64,000 bases of DNA. Origin: a phage. Positions 5,628 to 19,140 of this stretch are shown here, piece by piece (position 1 is the first letter of the stretch; the number at the start of each line of letters is the position of its first letter). Below the pieces are notes generated by a model. It was given only the letters and a program-made list of their open reading frames with translations, ran no database searches and was not told the DNA's origin. Where the stretch lies: sequence record PZ171032.1. The stretch is one strand, 5' to 3'. The position numbers were made by a program, and so were the translations under genes.

Positions 5628-7610
5628 TTATTTGATGTTATTCTTTGTATCGATCAGTTCACGGTATTCAATCATAGCAGGAGTGTCCCAATATTTCAAG
5701 CCCACATGCTTCAAAAGTGGATATTTCTTTTCCAATCTTGCAATATAGGCCTTTCCGCACTTAACCCGGTTGGCGATTAAGATTTTGGCACGATGATTTA
5801 GCTCACTGTGCTTCCACGCGGTGTTACCTTCCCACTTGTGGAAATGTGGCCGATAATTTCCAAAATCCTGCATGGGGATAATTTTCCCTAATTGTCTATA
5901 CAGGCTGTCATATGAAGTTTCATTTGCTGCGCGAGTCAGTAAGAATTTCCAGGCGTCCTCTTTCAACAAATGTTCCACATTTTTCTCTGTAACATACTGG
6001 CAATCAGGATCAGTCCAAAGCAGACGGGATTCTGATACCAGGTACAGGTCTTCCCCTTCAGGAATCTGGAGTGCCGCACGCACACGGTCATAATTTTGCT
6101 GGTAGATGTTACTCAGCTGTCCCAGCCAACAACTTCCACGTTGGATATCGCCCTCATAAGGAATGCAGTGCTTAATCTTCTTGAACTCTGCCTTAGTAAT
6201 ACGTTCACGACGGAAGTAACCATCCTTCTCAAGCTTTTTAACCCAATAACCTGGCTCGTAATGAGTTTTTGTTTCACCTTTCTTCGCAGGTCGGCGAGGG
6301 AGCTCTGATAACAATTTGACCGTATCTGCAAAGAACGGGTGGTGTGCCGCTTCTTTAAACTCTTCCACCAAATCCGTGTTACGGCAATAGAAAACGTTGC
6401 GTCCGGTGATCTCGCTTAAGTAGTTACACTTATTTCGGTTATATTTGCCGTCTCCGTCGTTAAACACTAAGTAGACCCCTCGTAAGAACTCCGACTTTCC
6501 GTAGCAGGCGTAACCTATGCGGCCTTTATTTAAGCCGCCAGCGAAGATCTCACAATCTCCCAAACTTCCTAGTCCTGTCTCTTCCCATCGGTCCCACATA
6601 AAATTCTTACCGAAGATGTGCCCGAACACTCCACTGTTCTTCATCATCTCACGTGCTTCTGAGGATGTTTTTGCTGTCTCCAATTCCGCAACAACTTCTG
6701 CCCCACGAAGACGGATACCCTCTTTGACAAAAGCCTCCAACCGCTCTTGGAATCCACCATCGTCGTGCCCCTCTATGGTCCATTCGCGCCCAGGGTTAAT
6801 ATTGCAATCCCCAATAGGGATCTCTACACAGATTGCAGGGTAGTCTGTCAATGTTTCCAGAAACTTAGAGCGGTAAGGTTGGTGTCCCATCACCACACGG
6901 CTCTCATCAGAGCTGGTATAACCTTTCAGGATAGTCATTTTCCAACCATCTTTCTCGTAGCGATACTGCGCCTCAACCTTGTCACCTTCCAGCATCTTAC
7001 TGGTCATAGGGTCGGTAACGGTAAACGGAAACTTTGCATAGCGTAGGCATGACGCAATAGCAGTGCGATATTTCAGAATATGCTCTTTCTTAACATGGAA
7101 CTGAACTTTTACCCCGTTGTGCTCTTCAGTCTTTCGCTCGCGGATCTTGGTAACGTTTGGGATACCCTGATCCAAGAACAATAGATATGTGCTTTCAACA
7201 CCATTGTGTACACTGATCACATCGAAAGTGTCCACCATGCTGAACGGGGCCTTTGAACCAACACCTTTATTACCCACCAGAGCGTTGCTGTTGCGCTTGG
7301 TTGACTCTCCGAGGTTCATGAAAGTGTTGCGGACCATCTCTTCTGACATGCCTAATCCAACGTCCTGCACAAAGAAGTATGGTTCAAGGTCTGTAGGAGA
7401 GTGAATGATGATCGGTACATCGCCCCGTCCAGACTCAACATGAGAGTCCACAGCATTGAAGATTGGTTCACGGCAGCTTGCCAGCACCTTATCTTCGTAA
7501 ATCCCTTTAATGATTAGCCCAAAAGTCTCTTTGTTCAGAGAAATTGAGCCCCTGGTGACCTCCATATTTCCAGTTAGCACTGCTTTAGTTTCATTACTGT
7601 TTACAATCAT
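5628..7610 (-). CDS. GHKL-superfamily ATPase, Hsp90-like N-terminal domain, with a large uncharacterised C-terminal region
   Basis: N-box 'EPIFNAVDS', G1 box 'QDVGLGMS', Hsp90-like 'NLGESTKRNS' and G2 box 'GNKGVGSKAPF' within the first ~130 aa; the remaining ~500 aa match nothing I recognise. Confidence 0.6.
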   Translation of the reverse strand: MIVNSNETKAVLTGNMEVTRGSISLNKETFGLIIKGIYEDKVLASCREPIFNAVDSHVESGRGDVPIIIHSPTDLEPYFFVQDVGLGMSEEMVRNTFMNLGESTKRNSNALVGNKGVGSKAPFSMVDTFDVISVHNGVESTYLLFLDQGIPNVTKIRERKTEEHNGVKVQFHVKKEHILKYRTAIASCLRYAKFPFTVTDPMTSKMLEGDKVEAQYRYEKDGWKMTILKGYTSSDESRVVMGHQPYRSKFLETLTDYPAICVEIPIGDCNINPGREWTIEGHDDGGFQERLEAFVKEGIRLRGAEVVAELETAKTSSEAREMMKNSGVFGHIFGKNFMWDRWEETGLGSLGDCEIFAGGLNKGRIGYACYGKSEFLRGVYLVFNDGDGKYNRNKCNYLSEITGRNVFYCRNTDLVEEFKEAAHHPFFADTVKLLSELPRRPAKKGETKTHYEPGYWVKKLEKDGYFRRERITKAEFKKIKHCIPYEGDIQRGSCWLGQLSNIYQQNYDRVRAALQIPEGEDLYLVSESRLLWTDPDCQYVTEKNVEHLLKEDAWKFLLTRAANETSYDSLYRQLGKIIPMQDFGNYRPHFHKWEGNTAWKHSELNHRAKILIANRVKCGKAYIARLEKKYPLLKHVGLKYWDTPAMIEYRELIDTKNNIK

Positions 7611-8107
7611 TTATTGCGCTCCTTGTAGTAGATATGACTCCCGAATTGAGCTGTCCTCTGCATCTTTTTTGCCCATTTCGGTCGTACTTTGGTCGTATGG
7701 TAGTGTGTTGCTCCACCTGTTATATCCATAGCCATGTATGCAACATGGTTGTTATTATAGACCTTTAGAAGCATCTTTGCAAGACTTTTAGCGTGATCCC
7801 ATGAATCTTTTTCTGTCACCTTAAAAGTTTTGCCGTAGTTTGTCCACGAAAACTGATTAGGTTGGTAGACAATCTTTCTTATAGTGTCCGGGTATTTGGG
7901 ATGAGATTTCCTGTTTAGGGTGGCAAACCCAGATGCCAGCATACCCATCGTGCCATCCCCTCTAGCTTCCCTGTAGATATTGCATGCTAGAATGTTTTCC
8001 TTAGTATCTGATGGCTTGCAAGTATGGTATACTTTTTGTTTTGGTGCTGCAACAACAGGCAGCGATAAAAATGCGCTCAAAATAATAGCAAAGATCTTAA
8101 TTTTCAC
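7607..8107 (-). CDS. secreted cell-wall hydrolase, SleB-type (Hydrolase_2 family); candidate endolysin
   Basis: N-terminal signal peptide 'MKIKIFAIILSAFLSLPVVAAP'; 'NIYREARGD...LNRKSHPKYPDTIRKIVYQPNQFSW' matches the SleB consensus (IYxEARGE...LNR...P.FP.TI..V..Q..QF). Confidence 0.7.
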   Translation of the reverse strand: MKIKIFAIILSAFLSLPVVAAPKQKVYHTCKPSDTKENILACNIYREARGDGTMGMLASGFATLNRKSHPKYPDTIRKIVYQPNQFSWTNYGKTFKVTEKDSWDHAKSLAKMLLKVYNNNHVAYMAMDITGGATHYHTTKVRPKWAKKMQRTAQFGSHIYYKERNK

Positions 8108-8546: not shown

Positions 8547-9731
8547 TTAAGCTTTAGCCAAAATGGCGCTAAACTCTTCACCAAACTCTTTTACAATCTT
8601 CATCAGGTTTGGGTATGCTTTGATCAACTGAGCAACAATCTTGTCACGCCCTTTACCGATAAGCAAGGCATTTCCTAAGGCGTTAGGTTTCATCATCGCC
8701 ATAAAGACTGAGAATACAAAATCTCGGTTCTCGTCCTTGAAATTTTCCCAAAGGAAATCGAGGAAGTTTGCCACACAGCTAACAAGATCTTCGTCGGAGA
8801 TACTTGCATTTTCCATCATATTGCGAATAGCGATACAACCTTCAGATCCAAGAATCCACAAAATGTCTGGCTGCTTAGGACCTACGTATTCTTTGCAGCC
8901 ACCTGCCATAATCCGACCGATTTCCGGTAAATTACGTTTCTTGGTGTGGTAAGTCCAGATCTCTACCGCTGCAGTGTGACCAATAGCACCTTGTAGAAGA
9001 ACACGGGCCATAGCGTCAGAAATAATACCGCTGTCAAAATCGTGCAAGATGTCAGATGCAGCAACCCAAGATCGCGGTGTGGCAAAAGATGGACAATTAA
9101 TCTCAGCCATAGCCTCATAATTATCAATAGCTGAGGGAACTCTTTTCAAATATCCAATTACAGAGGAATGCACCCCATTAAGGAATGCGTAGTCCTCAAT
9201 AAACACCTCTGCATTGCTTGTAACCTCTACAATGATAAAACGGTTAGCCAGAGGGGCTTCGAGCGCCGAAAGAACCGCACCATCTGTAGAACGGTTACCC
9301 GCAGCCACAAAAACAGAACCCTTAGGGAATGCATAGGTGCCGCACTTGTGGTCAAGCATAATTTGCATTGCAACCTTTTGCAGGTAGTTATCTGCATGAG
9401 TGAGCTCATCCAGAAAGATAATTCCGCTCCAGTCAGGATCCGCAGGCCAAAATTCTGGAATTGCAAACACTGTACGTGTAGTTCCATCCGCTTCTACAGG
9501 GATAGGTAGCCCAGATAAGTCGGCAGGATCTTTATCTGACAGTCGCACGTCAACAAGGTTGTCATCTCGCTCACCGAACATATTATCAGCGATCTGCTTC
9601 ATCACCTGGCTTTTACCCACACCCATTGGTCCCAAAATTAGGACAGATCGGCTATGACGTTGGGCAAACTGAATAATAGCTGGCAACTCACGGACAGTGA
9701 TTTGACCACTTTCGAATACGTTTCTTGACAT
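8547..9731 (-). CDS. AAA+ ATPase, MoxR/CbbQ-like
   Basis: Walker A 'LGPMGVGKSQ', Walker B 'IIFLDELTHAD'; size and layout typical of MoxR-type ATPases that partner with VWA proteins. Confidence 0.78.
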   Translation of the reverse strand: MSRNVFESGQITVRELPAIIQFAQRHSRSVLILGPMGVGKSQVMKQIADNMFGERDDNLVDVRLSDKDPADLSGLPIPVEADGTTRTVFAIPEFWPADPDWSGIIFLDELTHADNYLQKVAMQIMLDHKCGTYAFPKGSVFVAAGNRSTDGAVLSALEAPLANRFIIVEVTSNAEVFIEDYAFLNGVHSSVIGYLKRVPSAIDNYEAMAEINCPSFATPRSWVAASDILHDFDSGIISDAMARVLLQGAIGHTAAVEIWTYHTKKRNLPEIGRIMAGGCKEYVGPKQPDILWILGSEGCIAIRNMMENASISDEDLVSCVANFLDFLWENFKDENRDFVFSVFMAMMKPNALGNALLIGKGRDKIVAQLIKAYPNLMKIVKEFGEEFSAILAKA

Positions 9732-12298: not shown

Positions 12299-12311
12299 CA
12301 CGTTTTTGATG

Positions 12312-12340
12312 TTGACATCTGTTGAGACAATTGATACGAT
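12312..12340 (+). promoter_or_regulatory. sigma70-like promoter for the plus-strand unit
   Basis: -35 TTGACA at 12312-12317, 17-bp spacer, -10 TACGAT at 12335-12340; its -35 box forms an inverted repeat with the -35 of the divergent promoter. Confidence 0.4.
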
Positions 12341-12371
12341 TTCTTCACTTACAGAGCACGAGAGACGACTC

Positions 12372-13349
12372 ATGAATCTTGAAAAATATTATACACCAGA
12401 AGAGTTAGAGCGCTTGCTCAAAAAATATAGACGCAAACAGAATAACGCACGGAAACGAGATATAGAGTTCGACCTGTCATGGGAAGAATACCTCCTATTT
12501 GGTAAAAAACTTTTAGGAGATGGAGTATGCGACTATACCCTTATACCTTTTGACATGCACACAGATGAAAACGGGCTGGGGAATCCTTTCTACCCATCTC
12601 TGGAGCGGATAGATGATGAAGGTCCTTATGCGGTTGATAACTGTTGTGTGGTGGGATTGAGATGCAACTCTCTAAAGGACTGTCTGGTAGATAAAAAGAC
12701 TGCAGTCTTGATTAAAGACGAAACTGATCGAAAAATTGTCCAGCAGATGATGCTCCACCTGAGCGAAGAGCGTATGGAGAAATTGAAAGGTGATTATACT
12801 TTTGAAGATTTCATCTTGCAATATGGAACGGAAGAGGATAAACTAGCACTCTTTGACGAAGAAGAGGAGGAAGATATGCTACCGATGTCTAAAGTTACTT
12901 ATCGTGCACCCAAGAAGCACATTTCCGACATTGTAAACGAGCCTATCACAGAAGAGATTGAAGAAATGACGCAACAGGTGCATGAAGAGGAAAAAGAGAC
13001 TCAGGAGGTCGAAGAGGAGATTACAGAAGAGGTTCCTGCACTACCTGATGATGTTGAGATTGCCAAAGCTTACACTTTCTATTGTCAAACGTTCTACGAT
13101 GTAGGTATGAAAGTTGATCTGTCGTTCAGCCAATTTAAGAGTTCGTATATTCGCAAATGCTGTGCTTTAACTGGTGAACGTCTTGGAGCTGGACTTAAAC
13201 CCCTGTTGGTGACCGACTGGAATAAAGGTTTCACTAAAGGAAACTTTATGGTAGTATCTCCAATTATGGAGAAAGCTATGACAGATCTTATGAAGACCAC
13301 CCGCATGACAATGACCGAGTTGGCAGGTATTTTCAAACACGTTAAATAA
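12372..13349 (+). CDS. hypothetical protein with acidic linker; possibly two fused modules
   Basis: The ORF-track TTG start at 12306 lies upstream of the promoter -35; the first ATG after the promoter is 12372 (MNLEKYY); an internal 'MSKVTYRA' at 12884 lies within the 29-bp inverted repeat and is preceded by GAGGAGG. Confidence 0.55.
   Translation: MNLEKYYTPEELERLLKKYRRKQNNARKRDIEFDLSWEEYLLFGKKLLGDGVCDYTLIPFDMHTDENGLGNPFYPSLERIDDEGPYAVDNCCVVGLRCNSLKDCLVDKKTAVLIKDETDRKIVQQMMLHLSEERMEKLKGDYTFEDFILQYGTEEDKLALFDEEEEEDMLPMSKVTYRAPKKHISDIVNEPITEEIEEMTQQVHEEEKETQEVEEEITEEVPALPDDVEIAKAYTFYCQTFYDVGMKVDLSFSQFKSSYIRKCCALTGERLGAGLKPLLVTDWNKGFTKGNFMVVSPIMEKAMTDLMKTTRMTMTELAGIFKHVK
12880..12908. repeat. 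29-bp perfect inverted repeat, copy B
   Basis: taccgatgtctaaagttacttatcgtgca is the exact reverse complement of 11018..11046. Confidence 0.85.
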
Positions 13350-13361
13350 TGACAGGGGCCA

Positions 13362-14843
13362 ATGGCCCCTTCTGGAGTTTTAATGGATAGCAGAAGTTCA
13401 GAAATCATTGCCTCGCAGAAAGATGATGCCCTGAGAATGTTGCAGGCTGCACGTATGTATCTCCTTGAAAAGCTGCCGTTTTATGGCACACTACTGTCAG
13501 GGTTGCAGTTCGTAGAAAACCACACATGGTGCTCCACCATGGCAACCGACCATAAACGCATCTATTACAGTCCTGAGTTCATTATGGGATTGGCTGATGA
13601 GCGCAAGGCTATTCTTAAGGCTTCTCTAACTGACGAGCAGTTTGAGATGGCTGAAGTTTTCTATTCCCCAAAATCTGTGAAAGAGGTGGCCTTCCTTCTG
13701 TCACATGAGGTGGGGCATATTATCTGTGATCATCTAGTCCGTGGTAAAAGCTTTGAGCCGGAACTGTTCAATATTGCTTGTGATCACGTTATCAACACAG
13801 GCCTTGTGGTTGACTTTAGCAAACCTCCTTGTGTTTTCTTCCCGAAGGGGAAAAGCACTACGTTCATGAAAGGTAAGCCTTTTGGCTTCTTAGCCAGCTG
13901 CTACTGTGACATGAGGTTTCATGGATGGATTGCTGAGAACGTTTATGCAGTTCTTGATAAGCAAAGAGATCAGAATAACGGTAAAAGTAAGAACGGTAAA
14001 GGTGAGAACTCTCAAAGTGATAAGCGACAAACCGATGATCACATGAGTGGGAACGGTGGCACCAGTGATAATCTTGGAAAGGCTATGGGGTATGATCAGC
14101 CACAACCTGTAATCAGCCAATCTGATAAAGATCAGGCCATGCAGGACTCTGGTGATATGCTGGAGGCAGCAATGCAAGCTTCCGGAGGTCGTTGCCCTGA
14201 GGCGGTGCGTGAGTTTGTCAAGAACAGGGGTAAGCCTGTAATCAACTATATAGACATCATTAAGCAACGCATGTTGTCTAAACGAAAGGCTGAACTGACC
14301 TACAGAAAACCTGGTCGCCGATCTGGGTCTTTGACCAGCACAATGCGAAAAGTTGGGGCTATAAACAAGAACCAGCACGTTATTGTTCCCGGTCGTAATC
14401 CGGAAAACACCATAGATATTGTTGTAGCTTTAGACGTTTCTGGCTCGATCTCTCAAAGAACTTTAAAGAAAATGTTCAATGAAATCACCGGATTGTGCAA
14501 TCTGTATAAAGAGTTTAAGGTTACAATGTTCTGTTGGTCAACTGAGGTTGGAGAGGTTAAAGTATACACTCGCGGTAACATAGATGAGATGATCAACTAT
14601 GAGGTCCACTCAACATGGGGCACAACAGCTGCTTGCGTGTTCGAGTATCTAGATGCCAACATACCAAATGCAAAAGATGTCATCGTATTGACCGACCTAT
14701 ACTTTGAGCATAACTTTGAACAAAAGGCTGTTGACAACAAGTGGAAAAAGTACGATACTTTATGGGTTCTCACCGAAGGGTATAATAAAAATTATATCCC
14801 TAGCTTTGGGAAAACTGTGGAATTAATCGAGTACGCTAAGTAA
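13362..14843 (+). CDS. metallopeptidase-like (HExxH) plus von Willebrand factor A domain protein (DUF2201-type layout)
   Basis: 'LLSHEVGHIICDH' zinc-binding-like motif in the N-terminal half; C-terminal VWA MIDAS motif 'VVALDVSGSIS'; this layout commonly partners with MoxR ATPases. Confidence 0.72.
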   Translation: MAPSGVLMDSRSSEIIASQKDDALRMLQAARMYLLEKLPFYGTLLSGLQFVENHTWCSTMATDHKRIYYSPEFIMGLADERKAILKASLTDEQFEMAEVFYSPKSVKEVAFLLSHEVGHIICDHLVRGKSFEPELFNIACDHVINTGLVVDFSKPPCVFFPKGKSTTFMKGKPFGFLASCYCDMRFHGWIAENVYAVLDKQRDQNNGKSKNGKGENSQSDKRQTDDHMSGNGGTSDNLGKAMGYDQPQPVISQSDKDQAMQDSGDMLEAAMQASGGRCPEAVREFVKNRGKPVINYIDIIKQRMLSKRKAELTYRKPGRRSGSLTSTMRKVGAINKNQHVIVPGRNPENTIDIVVALDVSGSISQRTLKKMFNEITGLCNLYKEFKVTMFCWSTEVGEVKVYTRGNIDEMINYEVHSTWGTTAACVFEYLDANIPNAKDVIVLTDLYFEHNFEQKAVDNKWKKYDTLWVLTEGYNKNYIPSFGKTVELIEYAK

Positions 14844-14858
14844 GAGAGGAGGTTATTT

Positions 14859-15122
14859 ATGGCAACAGAGTTAAAATTTGCATCAAACCGTAAAACTAAG
14901 AAGTATCTGTCCTCAGTAGCTCCAGGCACTGTGGTGATGTTTGTTGATGAACTTGGGGATGTGAATACAGCACTTGTTGTAAAATCACATCCTGCAAACA
15001 TATATGTTGGGGTATTTGACCTGTTCAGAAAGGTGTTTGTAGAACTGCCTCACAGTTTGGTTGTTACAGAAATGGATGCCTGCATAGAAATTCTTGGCGA
15101 AGTTATGGTGGAGGAACAATAA
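14859..15122 (+). CDS. small hypothetical protein, member 1 of a 4-gene tandem paralog array
   Basis: 87 aa; shares a G-T/E-VV...ELD.KI.ILGE pattern with the next three ORFs; GAGGAGG Shine-Dalgarno. Confidence 0.6.
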   Translation: MATELKFASNRKTKKYLSSVAPGTVVMFVDELGDVNTALVVKSHPANIYVGVFDLFRKVFVELPHSLVVTEMDACIEILGEVMVEEQ

Positions 15123-15385
15123 TGGCTACCAGCATTGTATTCAATTCTAAGGTGAAGAACAAAAAGCGTGCAGACAGTTTTCCGTGTGGGACCGTGGTAA
15201 GTTGCGACGGAGACGGCATTCAAAACATAGTTATGATTGTCAAAACAGGAGAACATTGTGTGTGGGGGTTCGATTTAGAAAATAATGAGTTGTACGATCT
15301 GCCGCCAAACATGAAAGTTACAGAGCTTGACACCAAAATTACCATCCTTGGAGAGACAAGCTATTCAAAAGAAGGAGGAGAATAA
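15122..15385 (+). CDS. small hypothetical protein, paralog 2
   Basis: 87 aa; start overlaps the preceding stop (TAATGG). Confidence 0.6.
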   Translation: MATSIVFNSKVKNKKRADSFPCGTVVSCDGDGIQNIVMIVKTGEHCVWGFDLENNELYDLPPNMKVTELDTKITILGETSYSKEGGE

Positions 15386-15648
15386 TGACCACAAAAATCA
15401 CTATCGCAGAACCGAAAGCTAACACTCAGCCTATCGAAAAGTTTAAGTGCGGTGAGGTGGTAACATTCACACCAGATAATGAAGATGCTAAGATTTTCGC
15501 AATGGTCACAGCTGAGTGGATGTGTGACAACACCACACAGGTTCTGCGTTTTGACACCTATCTTACCGATGAAATCAGGAACGACAAGATTGTGACTGGT
15601 GTGGATACTGAGATTGTTTTCTACAAGAGCTTTTTAGAGGGTTTCTGA
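15385..15648 (+). CDS. small hypothetical protein, paralog 3
   Basis: 87 aa; start overlaps the preceding stop (ATAATGA). Confidence 0.6.
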   Translation: MTTKITIAEPKANTQPIEKFKCGEVVTFTPDNEDAKIFAMVTAEWMCDNTTQVLRFDTYLTDEIRNDKIVTGVDTEIVFYKSFLEGF

Positions 15649-15649
15649 T

Positions 15650-15883
15650 ATGGCAAAAATTAGAAAATTATCTAGCAATCAGGTTGTGAAAGACTTCGAA
15701 TCTGGAGAGATTCTTTATGTTCGTGATGCAGATGACGAAGGTGAAGATCTCGTTATGTTGGTGGGGCACGCTGAGGACGGATGCATCCAAGCTGTTTTTC
15801 TTGAAACAGCTATGGTGCACTGGATAGAGCTGGACCTGAAAGCACGAAAACCTAAAGCAGAAATCCTGATTTACGAAGATTAA
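15650..15883 (+). CDS. small hypothetical protein, paralog 4 (more diverged)
   Basis: 77 aa; keeps the central Gly, acidic patch and hydrophobic C-terminal pattern. Confidence 0.55.
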   Translation: MAKIRKLSSNQVVKDFESGEILYVRDADDEGEDLVMLVGHAEDGCIQAVFLETAMVHWIELDLKARKPKAEILIYED

Positions 15884-15899
15884 CAAAAAGGAGATAGCC

Positions 15900-16349
15900 G
15901 TGTTGAGCAAACGTGAATGCGACAGCATTAGCCTGAATTCTTATAAGAAACAATGGTTTGGGGTGGAAGTTTGCCGACTGCGGCTAGGCTCCTACCTGAA
16001 CTTCGTTTATTATGAGAGTGACAGTCGTATCGTTTCTTATGAAGTGTTCTACACTAAGAACACATTCGAACTGCGCCGTAAAGTAGATGGCGGGAGAACT
16101 ACCCCCCAGAATAATTGGGAAACTATTCTGCCTCCAGATGTTATAGGAAGTCCCCTGAATGTATCTGAAGATGAAAATCTTATGGTTCATGCTATGATGG
16201 GACTTGACAGCTTAGAGCTGGCAATCTATGATATGTCCATCGAAGCAGTTAAGCTGGACTACATCGAAAACACTTTAGAGGAAGGTATCAAGAAGTTTCT
16301 CAGTGAGAAATTAAAAGACCACTTTCATAAGGAGCTATATCTGTTATGA
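15900..16349 (+). CDS. hypothetical protein
   Basis: 149-aa ORF with GTG start preceded by AAAGGAGA. Confidence 0.55.
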   Translation: MLSKRECDSISLNSYKKQWFGVEVCRLRLGSYLNFVYYESDSRIVSYEVFYTKNTFELRRKVDGGRTTPQNNWETILPPDVIGSPLNVSEDENLMVHAMMGLDSLELAIYDMSIEAVKLDYIENTLEEGIKKFLSEKLKDHFHKELYLL

Positions 16350-16591
16350 AGACCCGTAAAGAACGTAACAAAATTTTACCTGGAGCTCTCGAACACCTGA
16401 TGAAGTGCAGATCTATTTGGCACTCTGCCAAGGAAGGGCAGAAGGTGGTTGTGGTTAGTGACAATACCAACCCGTTTGGAGATTATACCACCATGATGGC
16501 CCCATATGTCCGTGATGGCGTTGTAGAAGTGGTCCCTTACAACGGTTTGCATGAACGGCACTTTGAAAGCACTTTGCTAGTGGAGCTATAG
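16346..16591 (+). CDS. hypothetical protein
   Basis: 81-aa ORF; start overlaps the upstream stop. Confidence 0.5.
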   Translation: MKTRKERNKILPGALEHLMKCRSIWHSAKEGQKVVVVSDNTNPFGDYTTMMAPYVRDGVVEVVPYNGLHERHFESTLLVEL

Positions 16592-16593
16592 TC

Positions 16594-17160
16594 ATGGCGG
16601 TCAATGTGGCTTACAACACAGGAAAGCTTGACAGAGACATTGGGTGTCTTGTCCTTTCAGATACAGAAGAGTATTGGGGTTATGGGTTGCTGTCAGACCC
16701 ACACCCGAGCAACCTTGTATCAACAGTGCTATACCGCTACGACCCTGTGCCAACGGTACACGACAAAGACATTCACGACCTTCGGATCAAGTGTCTGGAA
16801 GATCTGCTGAACAATGGTTGCAACGATCTGCGGGTAGCCAAGGAGAAGCTTACAAACATTCACAAAGAGGAAGTGATGAGTACCCTCAGTAAAAGATCAG
16901 TGCACAAAAAGATGATGCTGAACTTTGCAATGGGTATCTACATGGATGGGTATAAGGGAGGGGATCCGATCCTCAAGCTTCGCTGCCCGACACTGTGGGA
17001 AAGAGTGGTTGACAGTAAGGACGGTACTGCCCTGCTCGAACTCCACACTGCAGGTTGGATTTGGCGGTATGTAGACGGATACCCTCTGTGGGCATGTGGA
17101 CCTGGGGAATTTGTTGACAGACCTAGCGCGGTGGTGGACTTACTATTGCAGTTTGAATAA
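16594..17160 (+). CDS. hypothetical protein
   Basis: 188-aa ORF. Confidence 0.55.
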   Translation: MAVNVAYNTGKLDRDIGCLVLSDTEEYWGYGLLSDPHPSNLVSTVLYRYDPVPTVHDKDIHDLRIKCLEDLLNNGCNDLRVAKEKLTNIHKEEVMSTLSKRSVHKKMMLNFAMGIYMDGYKGGDPILKLRCPTLWERVVDSKDGTALLELHTAGWIWRYVDGYPLWACGPGEFVDRPSAVVDLLLQFE

Positions 17161-17217
17161 AAAGGTGAGTTATAAGGTATTCATACACCTACCAACAATA
17201 CAACAGGAGAGACTAAG

Positions 17218-17493
17218 ATGACGAAAGAAGAGGCCGACGTATTAGATTTTGCACTAGAGGCTACGCAGGAGGCTTTGGTGTTAGCTTGGAAAATGAACCA
17301 GCGTGCTGCAGAATGCAACCGCCGCATCAATGAGATCTTGGGCATGTCTATGTATGATTTCACCATGCATGCCGGAGAGATTCCTGAATTAACTGCCGAG
17401 ATGAATGATCTTGACGATAAAATTAATATCATTCTGAAGACAGCAGAAACAACTCACCAAACCGCCCGTAAATTTATCAACGAGAAGGTGTGA
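17218..17493 (+). CDS. hypothetical protein, predicted helical
   Basis: 91-aa ORF; AGGAGAG Shine-Dalgarno. Confidence 0.55.
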   Translation: MTKEEADVLDFALEATQEALVLAWKMNQRAAECNRRINEILGMSMYDFTMHAGEIPELTAEMNDLDDKINIILKTAETTHQTARKFINEKV

Positions 17494-17960
17494 ATATGGA
17501 CTACAGCTACTGCGGGGAAGAAGTCCCTTTTAATTACAGCAATCTTACCACGAGCAATCCATATGAGACTCGCCACGGCACGCACATCATTGCCATCGAC
17601 TTTGATGGAACGTTTAATGCGAGCCCTTTCATCTTCTCCCGCCTGATCAGGGATCTGAAGAAGGAGGGGTGGACAGTCTACCTTGTGACTTTCCGATTCA
17701 TTACTCAAGACAATGTAGACATTGAGTATTGGCGCAAGGAGCTCGATGTTGGTGTGTTCTACACAGGTGGTGTTCAGAAGGCAGCCTACCTGGCGCAGTT
17801 TGATATCTACCCAGATATCTGGATTGATGATTCTCCGGCATGTATTCCGGCTAAGAATCAGTTAGAGTTTGCAATGAAGGAGATTGAGTATAAGTCTGAG
17901 GCTAAGCGGAACGGATGGCCCTTTATTATTGAAGATTACCCAGATCCTGAACCGGAGTAA
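17490..17960 (+). CDS. HAD-superfamily phosphatase-like protein
   Basis: HAD motif I 'IIAIDFDGT' and motif IV-like 'IWIDDSP'. Confidence 0.55.
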   Translation: MNMDYSYCGEEVPFNYSNLTTSNPYETRHGTHIIAIDFDGTFNASPFIFSRLIRDLKKEGWTVYLVTFRFITQDNVDIEYWRKELDVGVFYTGGVQKAAYLAQFDIYPDIWIDDSPACIPAKNQLEFAMKEIEYKSEAKRNGWPFIIEDYPDPEPE

Positions 17961-17965
17961 GAGCC

Positions 17966-18136
17966 ATGAGGCGAAGATATCATTACCTGATGTGGAAGTT
18001 ATATCAAAATGCTGCCAAAGCCTATCATACCATGTTTGGCAATGACGATCACTACATCATGTTACATCTCACCGCTATTGAGCATCACAATGAGTGGATT
18101 CATGCAATCGTGGCAGGTGATAAAGACTTTAAGTAA
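17966..18136 (+). CDS. small hypothetical protein (not in the ORF track, below 60 aa)
   Basis: 56-codon ORF MRRRYHYLMWKLYQ... with GGAGTAAGAG Shine-Dalgarno; fills an otherwise empty 226-nt gap. Confidence 0.3.
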   Translation: MRRRYHYLMWKLYQNAAKAYHTMFGNDDHYIMLHLTAIEHHNEWIHAIVAGDKDFK

Positions 18137-18186
18137 AGTATACCTCAAAAACGTATAGTGCGGCTTTCTAGACGGAGACTGATTAA

Positions 18187-18567
18187 ATGTGCAAGTGTAA
18201 ATCCTATAATTGGAAAGTGAAAGGTGCCAATCATCCAAATGTTATCGTTGATGTGCCTAAAAATCTTCGTGACGGCAAAAAACGTGTGTGCCTTGATAAG
18301 TGTATGGCTAAGCCTATCATGAGTTTGTGGGCAGCAGGTTTGAAAACGCTAAACTGCTGCTGTGGTCATAACAAAGATATTCCAAGCATCATTATCCCAG
18401 AAGATGCAGATCCTAAAGCTTATGCCAAAATACTGACCCGCTATCCCAGCACCTTCCTGATCGGAAAATGGTGTCACGATGAACTCCAATGGTGGATAGC
18501 CTATGGTAGTATAGGCACTACTTTTGGCTTCCCAGCTTTGTCAGAGCGCTATGTCAAAGTGTCATAA
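18187..18567 (+). CDS. Cys-rich hypothetical protein
   Basis: 126-aa ORF with CKCK...C..KC...NCCCGH cysteine cluster; GGAGACTG Shine-Dalgarno. Confidence 0.55.
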   Translation: MCKCKSYNWKVKGANHPNVIVDVPKNLRDGKKRVCLDKCMAKPIMSLWAAGLKTLNCCCGHNKDIPSIIIPEDADPKAYAKILTRYPSTFLIGKWCHDELQWWIAYGSIGTTFGFPALSERYVKVS

Positions 18568-18576
18568 TAGAATTTA

Positions 18577-18594
18577 AGGCCTCAAACGAGGCCT
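18577..18594 (+). terminator. weak terminator-like hairpin
   Basis: aggcctc-aaac-gaggcct 7-bp stem; the downstream U-run is poor. Confidence 0.3.
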
Positions 18595-18671
18595 GTGCCT
18601 TCATAAATTTCCCCACCCTGTGCGATTGCCTTCCTGAATAAAATACCCTCTCAGATCTCTTAAAATTAAGC

Positions 18672-18700
18672 TTGACACCACCACCAGATCTATATATAAT
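18672..18700 (+). promoter_or_regulatory. consensus sigma70 promoter
   Basis: -35 TTGACA at 18672-18677, exactly 17-bp spacer, -10 TATAAT at 18695-18700; followed by GAGGAG Shine-Dalgarno and the ATG at 18733. Confidence 0.65.
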
Positions 18701-18732
18701 TCTCACCAACCAACCAAACAGAGGAGATCGTC

Positions 18733-19140
18733 ATGGATAATCTTGCAGATGTAAATGTCGAAATTGTTAAACTAAAGTTCTTGGGCTTTCGGGACCCTTA
18801 TTCTTTAACAGCCATACTAATGGATACTCACTTCACACCAGGTAAAGAGTACACTGCCTTCCGTTATATTTGCGGAGATCACGAATCAGCTTACAGTGTG
18901 AATACAAACCTCGGCGAGGGATATTTCATCAGAGATATCACAGATCACTTGTGGGGCATGTGGGAGTTGGTGGAGGAAGAGAATAAATCCCTTCCTAAAG
19001 AGATTTGGGTGCACACCTTCCACACAGGTAAGTTTGGAGGTACGGAACATAAGTCTATCCACTATGATGAAGAAAGTGCCATCAAACAACAAGCTGTGCT
19101 TGGTGGATCTATAGAAAAATTTGTTAAATGCGAGGACTGA
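18733..19140 (+). CDS. hypothetical protein
   Basis: 135-aa ORF directly downstream of the consensus promoter. Confidence 0.6.
   Translation: MDNLADVNVEIVKLKFLGFRDPYSLTAILMDTHFTPGKEYTAFRYICGDHESAYSVNTNLGEGYFIRDITDHLWGMWELVEEENKSLPKEIWVHTFHTGKFGGTEHKSIHYDEESAIKQQAVLGGSIEKFVKCED

Follow-up and report, generated by a model that had tools for sequence, protein, structure and literature searches.

Four small paralogous genes arranged head to tail

The 64,000-nucleotide stretch of phage DNA analyzed here (record PZ171032.1; hereafter, the window) carries four small consecutive genes on its forward strand, between positions 14859 and 15883. We refer to these genes as A, B, C, and D, and to their arrangement as the array. 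Overall, the four proteins proved to be anciently diverged paralogs of one family, in which two near-invariant members stand next to a first slot that is occupied in different phages by either of two old alleles. The DNA surrounding the array (window positions 13300-17200) matches 119 records, nearly all of them from Vequintavirus, the rV5-like myoviruses with genomes of ~137 kb, and is 99.6% identical to the corresponding region of Escherichia phage vB_Eco_Alma. The array lies within a short block of forward-strand genes, from ~12306 to 19140, which is bounded by blocks of reverse-strand genes.

An earlier note, made from the sequence alone, had described four consecutive open reading frames (ORFs) of 87, 87, 87, and 77 amino acids (aa) at this locus, with coupled start and stop codons. 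The ORFs are present exactly as described. The A/B and B/C junctions both read TAATG, a one-base overlap of stop and start codons, and C and D are separated by a single nucleotide (TGAtATG). This overlap and spacing would permit translational coupling, although the coupling itself we only infer; in the annotation of phage Murica, each of the four genes has its own Shine-Dalgarno ribosome-binding site. The order of the genes is fixed in all 118 genomes that carry the array (118/118), and A, B, C, and D are annotated as “hypothetical protein” in every record examined.

The earlier note further proposed that the four genes are paralogous, and this was borne out, by different means for different members. 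A and B are recognizably similar in a direct comparison (37% identity over 87 aa, BLASTP expectation value (E) 2.6e-11). For C and D, BLASTP gave no significant pairwise match to other array members, and their relationship emerged from profile-profile comparison. The profiles were built from X, the gene found in the first slot of rV5, from diverged variants of A, B, and C in other lineages (A' and B' for the first two), and from a single-copy form of the family, P0044. A profile of A, B, and X matched C with 92.8% probability (P 3.9e-7) over 74 collinear columns, and a profile of A, B, X, and C matched D with 80.4% probability (P 1.3e-5) over 66 columns. The observed scores, 39.5 for C and 31.1 for D, were exceeded in 0 of 150 column-shuffled controls, which reached 17.2 at most, and 16 unrelated small proteins from this phage and from phage N4 scored between 8 and 13. 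Moreover, a single hidden Markov model (HMM) built from all five types of protein found every member at E <= 1e-27, the next match being at E 0.2. The alignment of the four proteins thus shows significant collinear similarity for all of them. The common pattern pointed out in the earlier note (an early glycine, “VV”, a hydrophobic run, and a C-terminal region resembling “ELD.KI.ILGE”) is real as well: one glycine and one isoleucine are invariant across the family, and the motif “F..G.VV”, a hydrophobic strand, and “TELD..I.I.GE” are common to its members.

A, B, C, and D are, accordingly, true paralogs that diverged long ago. Identity among the copies is 13-40%, and no two copies share any nucleotide similarity, which indicates that the duplications are old and leads us to reject a recent origin of the array. 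The “tandem amplification” of the earlier note therefore stands as a description of a head-to-tail array of paralogs, but not as a recent event. An 81-aa gene slightly further downstream (16346-16591) was considered as a fifth paralog and rejected (hhalign score 10.6, P 0.24).

The same proteins are present in the PHROG database, where A and B fall into family 10698 (E 1e-41 to 1e-43), C into 12861 (E 9e-62), and D into 12046 (E 5e-55). There, the three are treated as unrelated families, all labeled “unknown function”. Our profiles and modeling unite them into one superfamily that also takes in X and the single-copy P0044. As the earlier note had stated, no recognized family accounts for these proteins: searches of Pfam, NCBIfam, the defense-system models of PADLOC, and the sequences of the PDB returned nothing above threshold. 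Table 1 lists the array genes together with the neighboring features discussed below.

Table 1. Array genes and neighboring features in the window
Feature	Position	Strand	Remarks
MoxR-type AAA+ ATPase gene	8547..9731	-	Divergent arm; length and synteny as bas54_0063
Srd-like “anti-sigma” gene	12306..13349	+	Homolog of rV5 gp11; first gene of the operon; annotated start in relatives ~12372
Sigma-70-like promoter candidate	12312..12340	+	TTGACA, 17-nt spacer, TG-extended TACGAT; consensus match only; divergent control region upstream of the operon
VWA-metallopeptidase gene, 493 aa	13362..14843	+	DUF2201_N (HExxH metallopeptidase) and DUF2201 (VWA-like, with a DxSxS metal-ion-dependent adhesion site, MIDAS); directly upstream of the array; counterpart of bas54_0055
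Gene A, 87 aa	14859..15122	+	Small beta-barrel paralog (predicted); PHROG 10698; isoelectric point (pI) 5.0; part of the exchangeable A+B cassette
Exchangeable cassette	14874..15373	+	500-bp A+B segment, swapped elsewhere for ~230 bp encoding X
Gene B, 87 aa	15122..15385	+	PHROG 10698, as for A; modeled as an all-beta SH3/Tudor-like barrel
Gene C, 87 aa	15385..15648	+	PHROG 12861; diverged paralog, most conserved member; counterpart of rV5 ORF15 and bas54_0053
Gene D, 77 aa	15650..15883	+	PHROG 12046; most diverged paralog, lacks the N-terminal strand (predicted); pI 4.6; counterpart of rV5 ORF16
Downstream gene, 149 aa	15900..16349	+	PHROG 6790, labeled “tail protein” or “holin”; not a family member

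Predicted fold of the array proteins

We modeled two of the proteins with AlphaFold2. The model of B is all-beta, with eight strands (mean predicted local distance difference test, pLDDT, 77.8; predicted template modeling score, pTM, 0.65), and the model of D (pLDDT 80.3) shares its five-strand core, the N-terminal strand being absent. Structure comparison fits an SH3-like small beta-barrel, that is, five strands forming a closed or partly open barrel of ~50-60 residues. Both models draw on a shallow alignment of 20 sequences that is shared or overlapping between them, and we regard the assignment of the fold as moderately secure and the structural details as not secure.

Among characterized proteins, the barrels compared were the Tudor domains of SMN and PHF19, the KOW domain of Spt5, ribosomal protein uL2, domain I of EF-P/eIF5A, and the C-terminal Tudor domain of UvrD/PcrA. 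Sequence identity to these is 4-18%, and the array proteins differ from them in being strongly acidic and, for A and B, in a predicted extra N-terminal strand and C-terminal hairpin. None of the functional motifs of the Tudor, KOW, and SH3-like families could be demonstrated in the array proteins, and the Tudor, KOW, and SH3b models of Pfam and NCBIfam gave no match above threshold; the likeness is one of predicted fold. In the BFVD database, the models of B and D have neighbors in common, namely uncharacterized proteins of 70-90 aa from N4-like and other phages, including N4 gp21, which are similar in size and predicted fold (Foldseek TM score 0.6-0.8). We rejected gp21 and the other small N4 proteins as sequence relatives, as they show no similarity (hhalign P 0.06 for gp21). 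The comparison with these proteins brings no mechanism.

All family members are acidic (pI 4.2-5.0), with a net charge of -7 to -9 on the barrel, and A and B have in addition an N-terminal arm that is basic (+4). The array proteins contain neither a catalytic motif nor a signal peptide or membrane segment. Each of them would thus appear as a ~9-kDa, acidic, single-domain protein with a predicted small beta-barrel of the SH3/Tudor type.

Two near-invariant genes beside a slot with two alleles

The earlier note likened the array to rapidly evolving genes, a view that is only half correct. When the window is compared with L092, a diverged lineage that also has four copies, C is 98% and D 95% identical, with ratios of nonsynonymous to synonymous substitution rates (dN/dS) of 0.024 and 0.043, respectively. 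In the same comparison, identity is 57% for A, 64% for B, and 37-82% for the proteins encoded by neighboring genes, whose synonymous sites are saturated. Judged from these substitutions, C and D rank with the most conserved proteins that the operon encodes and are under very strong purifying selection, which shows that the array genes matter in nature. Only the first slot varies, and there the variation takes the form of two ancient, conserved alleles.

Of the 118 genomes with the array, 44 carry A and B in this slot and 74 carry the single gene X, which encodes 85 aa and shares ~40% identity with A and with B. The exchange has sharp boundaries. The flanking DNA is 97-98% identical up to positions 14873 and 15374, no nucleotide similarity is left between these points, and the right breakpoint coincides with the ribosome-binding site of C. 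Between rV5 and phage FV3, X differs at 22 synonymous and 0 nonsynonymous sites. The alignments thus portray slot 1 as two discrete ancient alleles, each itself evidently under purifying selection.

Two origins of the alleles were considered and rejected. X could have been a hybrid produced by unequal crossing-over, with the N-terminus of A and the C-terminus of B, but the identities of its halves to A and B, respectively (18/44 and 15/42 for the N-terminal half, 13/37 and 17/37 for the C-terminal half), hold no real signal, so X represents a third, equidistant lineage. A foreign origin of the cassette finds no support in base composition, as A, B, and X, at 0.40-0.44 GC, match the flanks. Tallies of isolation hosts hint that X is commoner in isolates from O157/O121 and A+B in those from K-12; the listing is incomplete and confounded by isolator, and we did not use it.

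Slot 1 resembles the “accessory regions” surveyed across phages (bioRxiv 10.1101/2023.04.06.535777) in holding alternative content between flanks that are 97-98% identical. Unlike in those regions, the alternatives are paralogous to each other and to two invariant neighbors. The survey makes no mention of rV5-like phages.

Gene C shows a further peculiarity at its synonymous sites. Comparing the window with three genomes of the genus (L087, L091, and L092), the proportion of synonymous differences (pS) in C is 0.26-0.64, with a proportion of nonsynonymous differences (pN) of at most 0.027, whereas pS in the adjacent genes of the same genome pairs is 0.0-0.28. Against rV5, pS is 0.37 in C versus 0.08 and 0.00 in its flanks. 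This suggests deep allelic lineages shuffled by recombination. The high synonymous divergence may stem from balancing selection tied to the dimorphic slot, or from diverged lineages having contributed sequence repeatedly. Vequintaviruses recombine readily in the laboratory, and no changes at the array locus are reported in the Aionostat evolution paper.

Taxonomic distribution

We searched for the family in three whole databases: a word-indexed collection of 5.8 billion proteins (queried with A and then with the family alignment), 1.84 billion representative proteins (with HMMER), and 50,697 phage genomes (with tblastn). In all three, the family was confined to rV5-like phages and a small number of metagenomic relatives. 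The sole match outside this group, among the 1.84 billion representatives, was a marginal one (E 6.4e-4) to a 540-aa repeat protein which, judged by eye, looks like bacterial SH3b repeats.

Within the group, the number of copies varies from one in L099, a 124-kb metagenomic rV5-like phage, through three in rV5 to four in the window and in L092. The single copy of L099 occupies the same site, after the VWA gene. L095, an unclassified mosaic phage, has a lone C gene (82% identical) upstream of the Srd-like gene of the same module. It resembles Vequintavirus at the nucleotide level only in patches of 75-80% identity, comprising gene C, a homolog of the 126-aa gene at window positions 18187-18567, and a 142-aa gene (within L095:3558-5319), and its Srd-like protein shares only 38% identity with its counterpart, its VWA protein only 46%. 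This patchwork indicates that small accessory genes move among these phages independently of the module. Sixteen records labeled “Campylobacter phage” (MG0656xx, host Campylobacter jejuni) are 97-99% identical in this region to rV5-like phages of Escherichia coli, and are, to judge by that identity, probably mislabeled or carried-over coliphages.

The operon and the VWA-metallopeptidase module

In rV5, genes 11-26 have been assigned to one transcription unit with sigma-70-type host promoters (Kropinski et al., PMC3606486). No terminator-like site was found within the array or adjoining it, and the literature yielded no transcriptome of the rV5-like phage group. The array would thus be co-transcribed, and presumably early, straight after the Srd-like gene and the gene with the HExxH and VWA domains, apparently from a host-type promoter, and the four proteins would be translated head to tail. 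The 149-aa gene lies next to the array in all lineages.

Relatives of the VWA protein all retain its HExxH and DxSxS motifs unchanged, and its homologs are present in 624 phage records, N4-like and jumbo phages among them. No array follows the VWA gene in Seunavirus, Mydovirus, and Henunavirus. Instead, a single gene of ~86 aa (84-91), which we term S, lies between the Srd-like and VWA genes. The S family resembles the array proteins in size, in belonging to the same module, and in the pattern “F.(V/I)GD.V ... VLF ... WGF(R)LEG”, which aligns to the first three strands of the predicted barrel. It differs from them in preceding rather than following the VWA gene, in being single-copy, and in not being acidic (pI 5.1, net charge -1.5). 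Profile comparison returned a weak local match between the two families (hhalign, 37-55% probability, score 25-27 versus a shuffle maximum of 16), and HMMER returned no match. On these alignments, homology of the S family to the array family is possible.

Dispensability and host dependence

Experimental data on close homologs are available from the transposon-insertion sequencing of phage Bas54 (MaxBurger, MZ501093) in the HIDEN-SEQ preprint (bioRxiv 10.1101/2025.11.20.689424). The Bas54 genes bas54_0054, 0053, and 0052 correspond to X, C, and D, with 84/85, 86/87, and 77/77 identical residues, respectively, such that the product of gene D in the window is identical to that of bas54_0052. All three are non-essential on K-12, with a TA-site saturation of 1.0 for X, 0.87 for C, and 1.0 for D (bioRxiv 10.1101/2025.11.20.689424). 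The array genes are, thus, accessory and dispensable for lytic growth on the laboratory host.

The tolerated insertions also bear on the idea that the array encodes minor virion or assembly proteins, which we regard as very improbable. Its one encouragement is the name “tail protein”, attached to PHROG 6790 (the downstream gene) and to some records of the S family. These labels are unsupported and propagated, and other records give those genes the names “HNH endonuclease”, “holin”, or “DNA repair ATPase”. Mass spectrometry of the rV5 virion identified gp52, 53, 60, 61, 64, and 133 but not gp14-16, so that the array proteins are not among the virion proteins detected, and the operon that holds the array has host-type promoters and is not part of the structural gene blocks.

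The same preprint compared insertions on K-12 and on the uropathogenic E. coli strain CFE311, a clinical isolate, and reported that the MoxR ATPase (bas54_0063) is necessary against the defense system DS-28 of this strain (bioRxiv 10.1101/2025.11.20.689424). On CFE311, insertions in the MoxR gene were strongly depleted (log2 fold change -7.23, q 0), as were, to a lesser degree, those in the VWA-metallopeptidase gene (-2.20, q 0.009). The latter value stands in the supplementary table, and the preprint text is silent on this depletion. For the 149-aa downstream gene and gene D, the changes were -2.28 (q 0.195) and -1.32 (q 0.68), and those for gene C (+0.33), gene X (+0.46), and the Srd-like gene (-0.08) were not significant.

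These results are central to the main rival of the binding role that we favor below. According to this rival, the array proteins serve the neighboring machine formed by the MoxR AAA+ ATPase and the VWA-metallopeptidase as adaptors or specificity subunits, or are its clients; they would bind the VWA MIDAS through their acidic surfaces or C-terminal tails, and slot 1 would set which host protein is engaged. Synteny argues for it, as a family member always directly follows the VWA gene in the window, rV5, L092, and L099, the C copy of L095 lies just upstream of the Srd-like gene of the module, and the similar-sized S gene sits between the Srd-like and VWA genes of three further genera, where it may take the same part. 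The invariant HExxH and DxSxS motifs, the position of N4 gp21, a structural neighbor of both models, three genes upstream of the AAA/VWA pair gp24 and gp25, and the conditional requirement for the ATPase and the metallopeptidase on CFE311 all point the same way. However, with X and C neutral and the drop in D non-significant, the array genes do not share the phenotype of the MoxR and VWA genes, which implies that they are not obligatory partners in that function, though redundancy among paralogs could mask a role. In addition, ~80 loci around distant homologs of the VWA-metallopeptidase contain no sequence relative of the family, gp21 resembles it in predicted fold and not in sequence, and the link to the S family is invisible to HMMER. 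Weighing both sides, we consider such a role unlikely. A more specific version holds that the barrels are interchangeable adaptors of a MoxR/VWA counter-defense machine, docking on the MIDAS and delivering host immunity proteins for unfolding or cleavage, with A+B and X as alternative target modules kept by balancing selection and redundancy explaining the neutral insertions. We find this version improbable.

In another proposal, the paralogs form a hetero-oligomer descended from a homo-oligomer in the single-copy lineages, their head-to-tail translation keeping the subunits equimolar, and the complex binding nucleic acid or protein. Small beta-barrels of this class (Sm/Hfq-like) often oligomerize through their edge strands. 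The overlapping stop and start codons, the fixed gene order, the contrast between one copy in L099 and three or four elsewhere, and the basic arm that A and B carry on an acidic barrel are all consistent with such a complex. Against it, the best structural matches do not include Sm/Hfq proteins, disrupting X, C, or D one at a time produces no common phenotype, and the acidic surface speaks against the binding of nucleic acid. We view a hetero-oligomer as quite unlikely and, like a virion role, as less likely than adaptors of the MoxR/VWA machine.

A possible role as binding proteins

Having no catalytic motif, signal peptide, or membrane segment, matching no enzyme or defense family, not being among the proteins that mass spectrometry identified in the rV5 virion, and being disruptable on K-12 with plaques still forming, the array proteins most likely act by stoichiometric binding. 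The reading that we favor is that they are accessory proteins, of value only in some hosts, which bind a host or phage partner. In particular hosts, they might sequester a macromolecule of the host or the phage, or redirect it, as accessory factors of host takeover or counter-defense, the functions that the earlier note had suggested. Within such a scheme, C and D would be the conserved core, and slot 1, with its old alleles A+B or X, an exchangeable slot for specificity. We hold this reading tentatively, and judge it about as apt to fail as to hold, if not slightly more so. The description on which it builds, of paralogous, phage-restricted, accessory, non-virion proteins predicted to be small beta-barrels, is much more secure than the function proposed for them.

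Several points weigh against a binding role of this kind. No target, phenotype, or expression data were found for any member. On CFE311, which is one natural host, insertions in X and C were neutral and the drop in D was weak and non-significant; these were single-gene insertions, and redundancy among the paralogs may mask a role. The models of B and D depend on one shallow alignment of 20 sequences in common. The near-invariance of C and D is atypical of genes engaged in an arms race. Finally, Vequintavirinae are exceptionally sensitive to restriction-modification systems (PMC8594841), which makes a broad anti-restriction role unlikely.

If these small proteins do belong to the MoxR/VWA machine, they would represent a new mode of counter-defense; otherwise, they are ordinary accessory genes. 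Large phages commonly carry small accessory genes in tandem families, and the SH3-like barrel is among the commonest small folds. What is new at this locus is the union of three PHROG families, the two-allele cassette, whose breakpoints are sharp, the extreme degree to which C and D are conserved, and the placement beside a freshly implicated counter-defense pair. A single array thereby shows a clear contrast between two near-invariant members and one slot with two ancient alleles. The rV5-like phages, which are candidates for therapy, are among the E. coli phages most often isolated, and most of their genes have no known function.

Annotation of neighboring genes

The annotations of the genes upstream of the array conflict. 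The Srd-like and VWA genes are variously labeled “HNH endonuclease”, “anti-sigma factor”, “anti-termination”, and “DNA repair ATPase”, and the name “HNH endonuclease” on PHROGs 3118 and 1314 looks like a propagated error. In the rV5 reference (DQ832317), the VWA gene is split into overlapping ORF12 and ORF13 (L087:1-385), whereas all its relatives have one gene of 487-493 aa; a frameshift or a sequencing error in the reference is the likely cause.

Other differences concern the metagenomic phage L099. In the divergent promoter region just upstream of its Srd-like gene, it carries a TnpB-like gene (OrfB_IS605, with a Cas12f1-like TNB domain; L099:1119-2258). Downstream, the 188-aa gene found at window positions 16594-17160 is present as two diverged copies of 197 and 183 aa in tandem (L099:5938-7128), showing that tandem duplication in this operon is not confined to the beta-barrel genes.

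On the reverse strand of the window, the gene at 5628-7610 encodes a 660-aa protein with a HATPase_c_3 domain, and corresponds, by length and synteny, to the Bas54 gene annotated as rIIA. A cell-wall hydrolase (Hydrolase_2) is encoded next to it, at 7607-8107.

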